This document shows positions 474 to 33,561 of a DNA stretch of 64,000 bases, piece after piece. Position numbers and translations under genes: made by a program. Below the pieces are notes generated by a model that had not been told where the DNA came from, made no database searches, and saw only the letters and a list, made by a program, of their open reading frames with translations. Source of the DNA: Patescibacteria group bacterium. Its GTDB lineage: Bacteria; Patescibacteriota; Minisyncoccia; Phycocordibacterales; UBA9973. Within the stretch, counting starts at the first letter, position 1. Each line of letters begins with the position of its first letter. The stretch is taken from the NCBI GenBank assembly GCA_040388095.1, contig JAZKCM010000001.1, forward strand, positions 125,820 through 189,819, in the 5' to 3' direction.

Positions 474-545
474 GCGCGATTAGCTCAGTGGTAGAGCGAC
501 CCCTTGACGTGGGGTAGGCCGGGGGTTCAATCCCCTCATCGCGCA
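474..545 (+). tRNA. tRNA-Val (anticodon GAC)
   Basis: Hand-folded cloverleaf: acceptor GCGCGAT/ATCGCGC, D arm GCTC-AGTGGTA-GAGC, anticodon arm ACCCC-TTGACGT-GGGGT, T arm GGGGG-TTCAATC-CCCTC, discriminator A. No encoded CCA. Confidence 0.9.
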
Positions 546-690
546 CAAGTGCAGAATAAAGGAAACTGCTTTTCTTTATTCGCCTTGTGCGAGGCGGAGC
601 CATATTTTTTCAGCAGAAAAAAATAGCGAGCCAGGGTCGTGAAAATTTTGCTTTGACGAAAGCAAAATTATTCCTGACCACAGTAAACAC
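546..690 (+). ncRNA. Candidate structured RNA fused to the tRNA-Val trailer (copy A of a 2-copy motif)
   Basis: Shares the blocks TTGTGCGAGGCGGAG, GAGCCAGGGTCGTG, AAAATT and TGACCACA with 33433-33545. The three intervening hairpins differ in sequence between copies but stay self-complementary. The frame has no protein-like conservation between copies. Confidence 0.4.
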
Positions 691-703
691 AACAACAAAT
701 TTT

Positions 704-1753
704 ATGAAAATCCTCAGCATTGAAACATCCTGCGATGAAACAGGTATCACTATATTAAATATATCTGGAAATGAAAAAAATCCAGTTTTTGAGGTGATCG
801 CAAATAGCCTCGCTTCACAAATAAAAATCCACGCAGAGTACGGCGGTGTCTATCCTGCACTCGCAAAAAGAGAGCATATAAAAAATCTACCGATACTTTT
901 GGGAAAAACTTTAAAGAAAGTAGGTTTAGAAAAAAATAAAAAGCCTGTCAATATGATCGCTGTGACTTCCGGCCCAGGCCTCGAGCCTGCGCTTTGGACG
1001 GGCATAGTTTTTGCAAAAGAATTAGGTAAAAAATGGAATGTGCCTGTCGTACCTGTAAACCATATGGAAGGTCATATTTTGTCAGTCTTTGCGAAAAAAG
1101 GAAAATTCAAGATTCCACAAATCAAATTCCCTGCGCTTTCATTACTTGTTTCCGGTGGGCATACCGAGCTAGTACTTGTGAAAGATTGGATGAAATATAA
1201 AAAAATCGGTGAGACGTGCGACGATGCAGCCGGCGAAGCATTTGATAAAGTCGCACGAATGCTTTCACTATCGTATCCTGGCGGTCCGCAGATTTCAAAA
1301 TTAGCAGCTTTAGGCAGAAAAAATCTTTCTAAAAATGAGATAACTCTTCCTCGCCCAATGATGTATTCAAAAAATTATGATTTTTCATTTTCAGGTCTCA
1401 AGACTGCAGTACTTTACCTAATCCAAAAAATCGGTAAGCTCGATGATAAAACAAAAATTGCTATTGCAACAGAATTTGAAAATGCTGTCGTCGATGTACT
1501 CACTCACAAAACAATTAAAGCAATAAAAGAACATAAAATACAAACACTCATCGTCGCTGGAGGTGTCGCTGCAAATACAGAGCTCAAGAAAATTCTTAAA
1601 AAGAAGATAAAAGAAAATAAATTAAATACAGAGATACTTTTCCCAAATAAAAGCCTATCGACAGATAATGCAATTATGATCGCCCTCGTCGGCTATTTCC
1701 GCAGGAAAAACAAGAAAACCAACATAAAAGCTGATGGCGGACTTTCTCTTTAA
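704..1753 (+). CDS. tsaD: tRNA N6-adenosine threonylcarbamoyltransferase TsaD (Kae1/Gcp family)
   Basis: ORF 587..1753, with the start moved to ATG 704 (MKILSIETSCDETG is the family N-terminus). Contains the VNHMEGH metal site and SGGHTEL. The upstream GTG extension covers the noncoding motif. Confidence 0.9.
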   Translation: MKILSIETSCDETGITILNISGNEKNPVFEVIANSLASQIKIHAEYGGVYPALAKREHIKNLPILLGKTLKKVGLEKNKKPVNMIAVTSGPGLEPALWTGIVFAKELGKKWNVPVVPVNHMEGHILSVFAKKGKFKIPQIKFPALSLLVSGGHTELVLVKDWMKYKKIGETCDDAAGEAFDKVARMLSLSYPGGPQISKLAALGRKNLSKNEITLPRPMMYSKNYDFSFSGLKTAVLYLIQKIGKLDDKTKIAIATEFENAVVDVLTHKTIKAIKEHKIQTLIVAGGVAANTELKKILKKKIKENKLNTEILFPNKSLSTDNAIMIALVGYFRRKNKKTNIKADGGLSL

Positions 1754-33211: not shown

Positions 33212-33246
33212 CAAAAATCAATTTTGATTTTTAAAGAATTTAAGAA

Positions 33247-33359
33247 GTTTGCACCCATAAACTTTTGGTAAATAATAGTAAAGTTTGCACCCATAAACTT
33301 TTGGTAAATAATAGTAAAGTTTGCACCCATAACTGTTTTGGTAAATAATAGTAAAGTTT
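33247..33359 (+). repeat. Tandem 36-37 bp repeat (3 full units) that copies the upstream region plus the first ~12 nt of tRNA-Lys
   Basis: Units start at 33247, 33283 and 33319: gtttgcacccataaacttttggtaaataatagtaaa, with the third unit showing ..aactgtttt... A fourth start at 33356 runs into the real tRNA-Lys (gcacccataactcagctgg). Confidence 0.9.
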
Positions 33360-33432
33360 GCACCCATAACTCAGCTGGTAGAGTAGCTCCCTCTTAAGGA
33401 GAATGTCGCAGGTTCGATCCCTGCTGGGTGCA
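33360..33432 (+). tRNA. tRNA-Lys (anticodon CUU)
   Basis: Acceptor GCACCCA/TGGGTGC, D arm ACTC-AGCTGGTA-GAGT, anticodon loop CTCTTAA, T arm GCAGG-TTCGATC-CCTGC. Confidence 0.9.
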
Positions 33433-33545
33433 CAAATTAAAAAGTTTACGGGGTAAAGTTTTTAATTTGTGCAAGGCGGAGGCACGACGGTGCCGAGCCG
33501 GGGTCGCGTAAAAATTCAGTAGAATTTTATATGTGACCACAATTG
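33433..33545 (+). ncRNA. Candidate structured RNA fused to the tRNA-Lys trailer (copy B of a 2-copy motif)
   Basis: Contains the blocks TTGTGCAAGGCGGAG, GAGCCGGGGTCGCG, AAAATT and TGACCACA, plus three hairpins (CACAAATTAAAAAGTTTAC/GTAAAGTTTTTAATTTGTG, GGCAC/GTGCC, AAAATTC/GAATTTT). Homologous to 546-690. Confidence 0.4.
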
Positions 33546-33561
33546 CACAGAAAAATAAATC

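Follow-up and report, generated by a model that had tools for sequence, protein, structure and literature searches.

In the R2 retrotransposon, a 5′ ribozyme resembling that of hepatitis delta virus (HDV) takes part of its helix P1 from the host 28S rRNA, and self-cleavage releases the element from the co-transcript. RtT RNA (Rfam family RF00391) derives from the Escherichia coli tyrT operon, 3′ external transcribed spacer RNAs are also known, and comparable dicistrons of tRNA-small nucleolar RNA (snoRNA) and tRNA-microRNA (miRNA) occur in plants and murine gammaherpesvirus 68 (MHV68). Motifs that recognize tRNA ends include the T-box UGGN bulge and the GGU of RNase P L15. Repetitive extragenic palindromic (REP) sequences and miniature inverted-repeat transposable elements (MITEs) are repeats of DNA, and group IIC introns insert after terminator hairpins. 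The nearest precedent in the literature is provided by the theta ribozymes, minimal HDV-like ribozymes located 3′ of CCA-less phage tRNAs (PMC10879173). Here we describe two stretches, copy A (542-703) after tRNA-Val(GAC) and copy B (33429-33561) after tRNA-Lys(CTT), of a 64-kb stretch of DNA from a metagenome-assembled genome (MAG) of Patescibacteria, a group of ultra-small bacteria; this stretch is hereafter the window. Both belong to a large and apparently undescribed family of structured RNA elements, 75-150 nt long, in the tRNA 3′ trailers of Patescibacteria (MAGs of the Paceibacteria/Minisyncoccia type). The family is placed as theta ribozymes are: 84 of 124 copies have a same-strand tRNA within 80 nt on their 5′ side, and most of these tRNAs have no encoded CCA.

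A strand-specific structured RNA family

An earlier note on the window had reported blocks shared by the sequences after tRNA-Val and tRNA-Lys, and alignment of the two copies bears out both the positions and the blocks. TTGTGC[G/A]AGGCGGAG, GAGCC[A/G]GGGTCG[T/C]G and TGACCACA are identical between copies A and B, and the three segments between the blocks are unrelated in sequence yet each self-complementary. The sequence GAGCCRGGGTCG occurs exactly twice in the 64 kb, and four further matches at ≤2 mismatches are unrelated. Both copies fold far more stably than their dinucleotide shuffles (z = −6.1 for copy A and −9.0 for copy B; 0/200 shuffles equal either). The three helices proposed in the note are upheld by the alignment, by these z-scores and by compensatory changes in ~124 homologues; helix 1 does start in the last bases of the tRNA, with P1 running from tRNA position 70 in both copies, and the expected GGTC...GACC closure of helix 3 is the P3 base GGUCG/UGACC, again in both. 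The blocks, which had been taken for single-stranded, are indeed conserved but partly paired: GGC/GCC form helix P2a, GGUCG/UGACC form the P3 base, and UUGUGCR is the 3′ strand of P1. The middle block has two variable letters, [A/G] and [T/C], which covary as a long-range pair, A-U in copy A and G-C in copy B (Table 1).

An exact-pattern scan (AGGCGGAG..GAGCCNGGGTCG..GACCAC) over 185,579 species-representative genomes returned 93 stretches. Patescibacteria MAGs account for 83 of these and carry the labels Nomura-, Kaiser-, Adler- and Taylorbacteria, Paceibacteria/-ota, Minisyncoccia, Parcubacteria and ‘Saccharibacteria’; the remaining 10 are in high-GC genomes and have no flanking similarity, and are therefore chance matches. 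A covariance model (R1), built from 59 long-type copies and searched in the 8-kb loci of the pattern scan and in the window, matched ~124 copies in the loci at E < 1e-3, plus both window copies (copy B with 55.4 bits, E = 1.4e-10). Such a search of related genomes had been suggested in the note, and the copies it retrieved covary as anticipated. Covariation in 59 to 123 homologues also backs the deduction that conserved linkers combined with compensated helices mark a functional structured RNA. A scan of viral contigs yielded four matches with neither a tRNA nor a covariance-model match; as all four are chance matches, a phage origin was rejected.

Comparison with Rfam, likewise suggested, left the claimed novelty intact. 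A cmscan of the whole window against Rfam 15 at gathering thresholds matched 11 tRNAs and nothing else, and searches of copies A and B and locus L020 at E ≤ 10 with permissive filters gave weak chance matches (snoRNA, miRNA and others) far below gathering thresholds. At E ≤ 10, no Rfam 15 model of a ribozyme, riboswitch, T-box, transfer-messenger RNA (tmRNA), signal recognition particle (SRP) RNA, 6S RNA or RNase P matched, and the hammerhead, twister, twister-sister, pistol, hatchet and hairpin families are absent among the Rfam matches up to E = 10. The motif description was found neither in full-text literature searches nor in the 224-motif paper. With a fold in no curated RNA family and no publication found that describes it, the family appears to be new as an RNA class.

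The family comprises two size classes. In the short class, which includes copy B, the core is ~65 nt long, with a P2 of 4-5 bp capped by a GACG loop and a P3 with an AGCA-type loop. In the long class, which includes copy A, the core is ~89 nt long, P2 has an AU bulge and an AGCA loop, and an extended P3 is capped by GACG. One conserved A directly follows P1. The 3-bp helix P2a closes P2, which contains a near-invariant GGA/GA internal loop; in the 2-nt junction that comes next, the first base reaches six positions into P3 to form a long-range Watson-Crick pair. The P3 base GGUCG/UGACC is followed by A-C-A. The near-invariant letters (G-N-C-G-G-A-G, C-G-A-G-N-C-N-G-G-G and G-A/G-C-C) hold even in copies that were not selected by pattern. 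A kink-turn reading of the GGA/GA loop was rejected because the required register breaks the strongly covarying pairs 17-42 and 18-41.

Standard pairs fill 93-94% of cells (93.2% in a MAFFT alignment not fitted to any structure), compared with 36-47% when partners are slid by 1-3 columns. In the MAFFT alignment, 25 of 34 pairs are altered on both sides and 0/500 shuffles attain the covariation score; for the P3 helix of copy A, 15/20 pairs are altered on both sides among homologues. Variant copies replace the P2a pairing GGC/GCC with GCC/GGC or GAC/GUC (middle pair GC 96, CG 13, AU 7) and the P3-base pairing GGUC/GACC with GGCU/AGCC or GGCC/GGCC. The non-nested pair 49-56, which joins the N of GAGCC-N-GGG to the N of GGGUCG-N-G, is AU in 48 copies, GC in 41, CG in 7 and GA in 18 (mutual information with average product correction, 0.89), and is Watson-Crick in 83% of the MAFFT alignment versus 39% for the nested alternative. 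The G.U wobble within GGUCG/UGACC is invariant and would be a mismatch on the opposite strand, and G.U pairs are common elsewhere too, so the RNA strand is the tRNA strand. Together, these patterns show a real, strand-specific and tertiary-structured RNA family.

Coupling to tRNAs and turnover at orthologous sites

In addition to the 84 tRNA-linked copies, 16/124 lie 3′ of another copy, and most copies outside these two groups are second copies in arrays. The element is borne by 84/207 tRNAs in the loci, mainly those for Ala, Arg, Lys, Val, Ile(GAT), Leu(GAG) and Glu. What lies downstream varies (a co-directional open reading frame (ORF) in 58 cases, a convergent one in 25, a tRNA in 15 and a further copy in 17), and the co-directional ORFs belong to many unrelated families and begin 5 to >1000 nt away. 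The preference of the earlier note for coupling to tRNAs over a gene-specific leader is confirmed by the position of most copies 3′ of a tRNA and by these mixed neighbours.

P1 of the 84 tRNA-linked homologues starts at tRNA position 70, has a median length of 21 bp and carries an apical CUGC loop in 36/84. Its 3′ strand, the guide, is therefore complementary to the end and trailer of its own tRNA, and pairs with tRNA positions 70-73. The pairs N70-N8 and N71-N7, in which the last two bases ahead of the conserved A meet positions 70 and 71 of the adjoining tRNA, form in 96% and 90% of cases, respectively; permutation of the copies lowers these values to 58% and 55%. In many homologues, the apex of P1, which lies upstream of the conserved core, has a terminator-like GC stem, CUGC loop and U run. 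A terminator scan called P1 of neither window copy, and promoter and terminator scans detected nothing convincing inside the window elements; on the basis of these scans, a promoter or terminator reading of the two window copies seemed unlikely.

Nearly every tRNA gene in loci L001-L093 and the window continues with C-A past its discriminator (N73-C-A), with or without an element, and a full CCA is encoded in a minority; this arrangement may reflect a 3′-processing rule of these bacteria. The end of the element core, the P3 helix plus A-C-A, has the same look as the ‘helix + A73 + CA’ of tRNA genes in these genomes, and thereby combines a helix, an unpaired discriminator and a CA-type tail in the manner of an acceptor-end mimic. 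The tails beyond the core are alike in copies A and B (22 nt, A-rich, with internal (G/A)CACA(A/G)), and GCACAG is found at the same place in L105. Judging by these alike tails, the element in the window lineage may extend past the GACCAC block. Pairing of TTGTG with the distal CACA, which the note had offered as an alternative fold, is possible, but reaches 4.13/6 pairs versus 3.93 ± 0.08 when copies are permuted. UUUGU/ACAAA, which would pair the guide with the 3′ flank in normal copies, has the same register as the stem P0 of class-2 copies (below) and is marginally above permuted pairs, and an alternative fold or switch via a closing stem P0 is possible in class-1 copies. The 3′ flank ACAAA also resembles a tRNA trailer, a likeness that is largely generic composition.

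Orthologous loci were retrieved via TsaD and IF-2 homologues. The tRNA-Val(GAC)/tsaD junction is empty in L099, L101, L102 and L103 (TsaD 84%, 87%, 70% and 70% identical to that of the window), where the tsaD ATG follows the tRNA after 1, 1, 6 and 0 nt, respectively. The tRNA-modification gene tsaD is probably co-transcribed with tRNA-Val(GAC), given its start 0-6 nt after the tRNA in these relatives. Among the compared tRNA-Val/tsaD loci, the copy A element is found in the window only, and is therefore a lineage-specific insertion that is dispensable for tRNA-Val and tsaD. In L098 (TsaD 88% identical), the junction holds a different 120-nt structured insert (L098:53-178) with a CUGC-loop hairpin and a small three-way junction (z = −4.3; no match to model R1). 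The junction seems to be a hotspot used by more than one family of elements. The site of copy B, the tRNA-Lys/tRNA-Leu spacer, is filled in the window, L105 and several scan loci, and is empty in L106. The L105 orthologue differs in its P1, P2 and P3 sequences and shows GAC/GUC in P2a as a compensatory change. Filled and empty sites among relatives indicate that it has been gained and lost and is not essential there, and this presence/absence polymorphism at orthologous sites is MITE-like.

Elements form tandem arrays of two or three copies. Array neighbours differ in P2a and P3-base pairs, as would be expected if each copy had to fold on its own within a shared transcript. Within a lineage, copies are similar to one another, and orthologous copies keep the fold via compensatory changes. 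Lineage-specific variants recur after different tRNAs, including an ACUUG/ACUGG P2 loop and an unusual P2 common to L027 and L028 (one MAG), and point to spread or homogenisation within genomes. In ~15 class-2 copies, the same core is closed by the stem P0, the 5′ strand of which is antisense to the T loop and 3′ end of the neighbouring tRNA (5-19 nt, ending ...GAUUC-GAA). On its 3′ side, P0 repeats the last 17 nt of this tRNA literally and in sense orientation, and is followed by C-A again and often by a normal unit. P0 is a perfect complement, not a copy of the tRNA 5′ strand. For example, G3.U70 of tRNA-Ala is A-U in the L020 mimic, and mimicry of aminoacyl-tRNA synthetase substrates by class-2 copies was rejected for this reason. 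Class-2 copies may have a mundane origin in recombination at the palindromic T-loop sequence TTCGAA. We note that partial tRNA duplications adjoin elements in two loci, with breakpoints in or near conserved tRNA sequences: L013:5805-6175 (minus strand) holds a second copy of the tRNA-Arg 3′ part (T loop onward) plus P1 and core, and L106:3600-3704 holds a partial duplicate of the tRNA-Leu(TAG) 5′ part.

All-versus-all clustering of the 725 ORFs in these loci revealed no family in >11/83 loci, and the most frequent families are housekeeping (CCA-adding enzyme, IF-2 and ClpB-like); a protein partner linked to the element within the loci was therefore rejected. The CCA-adding-enzyme gene lies ~20 nt downstream of tRNA-Arg(TCG) plus element in 11 loci (L013, L014, L024, L058, L069 and six others), which places a mimic of the tRNA end just upstream of the gene for the enzyme that completes tRNA ends. 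This adjacency may be mere synteny of one clade. In the window, the longest TsaD ORF (587-1753; GTG at 587, 388 aa) crosses the RNA element, and the 388-aa version is present in public databases (P0122). It is probably an over-extended gene call, and many TsaD homologues of 377-415 aa may share the over-extension. Upstream of tRNA-Lys(CTT), a 36-bp unit is repeated 3.4 times (33245-33369) and runs into that tRNA; each unit contains a promoter-like TTTGCA-17-AATAAT and the first 11 nt of tRNA-Lys (GCACCCATAAC). Features of both copies and of the empty sites are listed in Table 1.

Table 1 Coordinates of the two window elements, their neighbours and the empty orthologous sites
Feature	Position	Strand	Details	Basis
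tRNA-Val(GAC)	474-546	+	Discriminator A545, then C546; CCA not encoded	ARAGORN; Rfam tRNA, 67.8 bits
Copy A, helix P1	542-591	+	Hairpin, CUGC-type apical loop; 5′ strand from tRNA position 70 (c542)	Minimum free energy (MFE) fold
Copy A, guide UUGUGCG	585-591	+	3′ strand of P1; tRNA positions 70-74 as pairing partner	
Copy A, junction A592 and P2 domain	592-632	+	P2a: GGC 593-595 with GCC 630-632	
Copy A, P2 internal loop, conserved		+	GGA 596-598 opposite GA 628-629	
Copy A, P2b, variable hairpin	599-627	+	AU bulge, AGCA-type loop	Pairs covary
Copy A, junction J2/3 (A633, G634) and tertiary pair	633-640	+	Non-nested pair A633-U640, bridging the P3-base 5′ strand	
Copy A, helix P3, long type	635-679	+	Base GGUCG 635-639 with UGACC 675-679; distal hairpin, GACG loop	
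Copy A, 3′ tail	680-703	+	A-C-A after P3, then A-rich spacer to tsaD start codon; lacking in relatives whose site is empty	
tsaD	704-1753	+	Downstream of copy A, outside the element	Homologues with Pfam TsaD; orthologous loci
tRNA-Lys(CTT)	33360-33433	+	Discriminator A33432, then C33433	ARAGORN; Rfam tRNA
Copy B, helix P1	33429-33473	+	From tRNA position 70; guide UUUGUGCA 33466-33473	MFE fold
Copy B, junction A33474 and P2 domain, short type	33474-33499	+	P2a: GGC 33475-33477 with GCC 33497-33499	
Copy B, P2 internal loop		+	GGA 33478-33480 opposite GA 33495-33496	
Copy B, P2 hairpin	33481-33494	+	GGCAC-GACG-GUGCC	
Copy B, J2/3 (G33500, G33501), tertiary pair and helix P3	33500-33538	+	Pair G33500-C33507; P3 33502-33538, base GGUCG with UGACC, loop AGUA	
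Copy B, 3′ tail	33539-33561	+	A-C-A and A-rich spacer up to the tRNA-Leu(TAG) 5′ end (33562)	
Empty tRNA-Val/tsaD sites	L099:1128-1205, L101:1-70, L102:522-605, L103:527-605			

Candidate explanations

We tentatively favour, with a probability of about 45%, a composite reading in which the element is an insertional structured RNA of tRNA trailers that is co-transcribed and then cut off, with a core that serves its own removal. Under this scheme, the tRNA could mature only once the element has been cut away, and selection for harmless removal, as for introns, would preserve the fold. Cuts would fall at the tRNA/element boundary and at the tRNA-like 3′ end of the element. Either the tRNA 3′-end machinery would make them on recognizing the mimic, or the element would cleave itself, with its conserved core as a ribozyme that the guide helix holds in position. 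Spread could proceed via guide-directed targeting or via recombination at conserved tRNA 3′ and T-loop sequences. Of the roles listed in the earlier note, those of a processing element, a ribozyme or the RNA of a mobile system agree best with gain and loss at orthologous sites; a defence system is unsupported because no protein family recurs next to the copies.

Several points weigh against the composite reading. Co-transcription, cleavage and function are what we infer from sequence. A fully formed P1 puts the tRNA/element boundary (A73|C74) inside a regular helix, four pairs from the junction, which is poor geometry for known small self-cleaving ribozymes. Terminal inverted repeats are absent; no target-site duplication is clearly definable, as the window spacer differs from the empty sites and boundaries cannot be fixed; and no transposase, integrase or reverse transcriptase (RT) family recurs within the 8-kb loci or lies nearby. 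The locus sample was picked by motif, which biases per-tRNA frequencies. Finally, a host function unrelated to removal could just as well account for the ~20 near-invariant nucleotides, the tertiary pair and the compensatory evolution over long times. A bolder version, in which the element is a new class of mobile ribozyme, strikes us as improbable: with its 5′ guide strand the element would recognize a tRNA 3′ end, cleave at the boundary and, either by reversal of that reaction or by recombination that the guide directs, join further tRNA 3′ ends, and its tRNA-like 3′ end would let new copies add on to yield tandem arrays. Such an element would in effect be a protein-free, RNA-guided parasite of tRNA trailers among the tiniest of bacterial genomes.

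An alternative reading is a host-beneficial, non-selfish, cis-acting module (a new self-cleaving ribozyme, or a processing or terminator signal) for 3′ maturation or termination of particular tRNAs (Ala, Arg, Lys, Val, Ile, Leu-GAG and Glu), perhaps analogous to the role proposed for theta ribozymes in phages. We consider this possible, although on balance unlikely. The placement directly 3′ of tRNAs, the pairing of the guide with the tRNA end and the terminator-like apical part of P1 in many homologues (GC stem, CUGC loop and U run) all suit such a module, as do orthologous copies kept with compensatory changes and conserved junction nucleotides with a tertiary pair typical of catalytic or ligand-binding cores, and HDV-like theta ribozymes 3′ of CCA-less phage tRNAs provide a precedent (PMC10879173). 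However, the element is dispensable, with the same tRNA-Val and tRNA-Lys genes lacking it in close relatives; just 84 of the 207 tRNAs in the loci bear it; arrays of two or three copies would be superfluous for processing one tRNA; no known ribozyme model matches; and the putative cleavage site is within a helix. More doubtful is a trans-acting small RNA or ribonucleoprotein scaffold that borrows the promoter and processing enzymes of a tRNA to obtain defined ends, with conserved loops that bind a protein or ligand. Its tRNA-like 3′ end, the many conserved nucleotides in loops and junctions, the conserved GACG and AGCA hairpin loops and its presence independent of downstream genes are consistent with this idea, and multiple gene copies would increase dose. 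Yet a trans-acting RNA would have no reason to carry a guide that tracks positions 70-71 of the neighbouring tRNA, or to occur in class-2 copies built from the 3′ part of that tRNA, and both the lack of a linked partner gene and the patchy presence at orthologous sites count against it.

Two further explanations place function in the DNA or in the downstream gene. Multiple copies, tandem arrays and presence/absence polymorphism are as expected of a DNA-level repeat (a REP, a MITE or an attachment (att)-site remnant) whose hairpins matter as DNA and have no RNA function, and the duplicated tRNA 3′ parts (T loop to discriminator) beside some copies are reminiscent of att-site duplications. This reading is very unlikely given that the invariant G.U wobble and the many other G.U pairs are confined to one strand, always the tRNA strand, that a non-nested pair covaries, that terminal inverted repeats are missing and that conservation spans many candidate Patescibacteria lineages (Nomura-, Kaiser-, Adler- and Taylorbacteria) despite full turnover of helix sequences. 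Regulation of the gene that follows (tsaD for copy A; cca in one clade) by a riboswitch or 5′ leader is largely refuted by context and scarcely credible. The core is three-way-junction-like with a conserved pocket, tsaD begins 20 nt past copy A, and the CCA-adding-enzyme gene follows tRNA-Arg(TCG) plus element in 11 loci; but a convergent ORF (25 times), a tRNA (15 times) or another copy (17 times) is often what lies downstream, the co-directional ORFs are of unrelated families, copy B precedes a tRNA, and tsaD orthologues work without the element. The copies do not consistently occupy the 5′ untranslated region of a functionally coherent set of genes, as a cis-regulatory leader would.

If confirmed, the family would be a phylum-wide, multi-copy RNA class with a new fold, coupled both physically and structurally to tRNA 3′ ends and taking up several kilobases in otherwise extremely streamlined genomes. 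Should it prove to be a ribozyme, catalytic RNAs would gain a new class, and theta ribozymes would be joined by an independent second example of tRNA 3′ processing carried out by RNA; should it prove selfish, it would represent a so far unknown route for a tiny protein-less element to target tRNA genes. Either way, gene callers extend TsaD and other ORFs through the element and assemblies break at it, and tRNA maturation in Patescibacteria becomes directly testable through it.

Comparison with known systems

No known system closely matches this family in combining guide pairing to the tRNA end, a tRNA-end mimic, a tertiary pair and tandem arrays with insertional behaviour in streamlined genomes, and individual features recur in several systems. 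Like REP/MITE-type repeats and group IIC introns, the element is multi-copy, present or absent among relatives, located beside or after a terminator-like hairpin, and arranged in tandem arrays. It differs in the lack of terminal inverted repeats, in strand-specific, RNA-type covariation with a tertiary pair, in its fixed orientation relative to tRNAs and in a size far below that of any group II intron, with no match to RF00029. The P3 helix, with GG(U) paired to (A)CC and then A-C-A, has the acceptor-end look of tRNA-like minihelices, and the closing helix of class-2 copies comprises 12-17 bp derived from the 3′ strand of the tRNA acceptor and T stem; however, the Rfam tRNA model has no match to the element core, and T-box features are absent.

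RtT RNA likewise consists of repeated RNA units in the 3′ trailer of a tRNA transcript that are released by tRNA processing, as would be the case here. The two have no sequence or structure match (no Rfam match), and RtT is restricted to one operon, whereas the Patescibacteria element is phylum-wide, follows many tRNAs and pairs with the tRNA end. With R2, the element would share co-transcription of an insert with a host structural RNA gene and selection that keeps the RNA fold of a selfish insert, and in both an element strand pairs with host junction sequence. Unlike R2, the element has no RT or other ORF, its fold is different and its host is bacterial.

Theta ribozymes remain the nearest comparison. 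Both are small structured RNAs found in many copies on the same strand as, and directly 3′ of, CCA-less tRNA genes, and release of the tRNA 3′ end is proposed for both. The element fold is unrelated, without a nested double pseudoknot and without a match to an HDV-family Rfam model. Threading onto an HDV-like fold (nested double pseudoknot of P1, P2, P3, P1.1 and P4, with cleavage 5′ of P1) fails because P1 of the element is a continuous hairpin, the strands of which are split only by a paired apical hairpin that leaves no segment for P2 or P3. Theta ribozymes belong to phages of Bacteroidota and Bacillota, whereas the element resides in Patescibacteria chromosomes, where its helix overlaps the tRNA end and its catalysis is putative.

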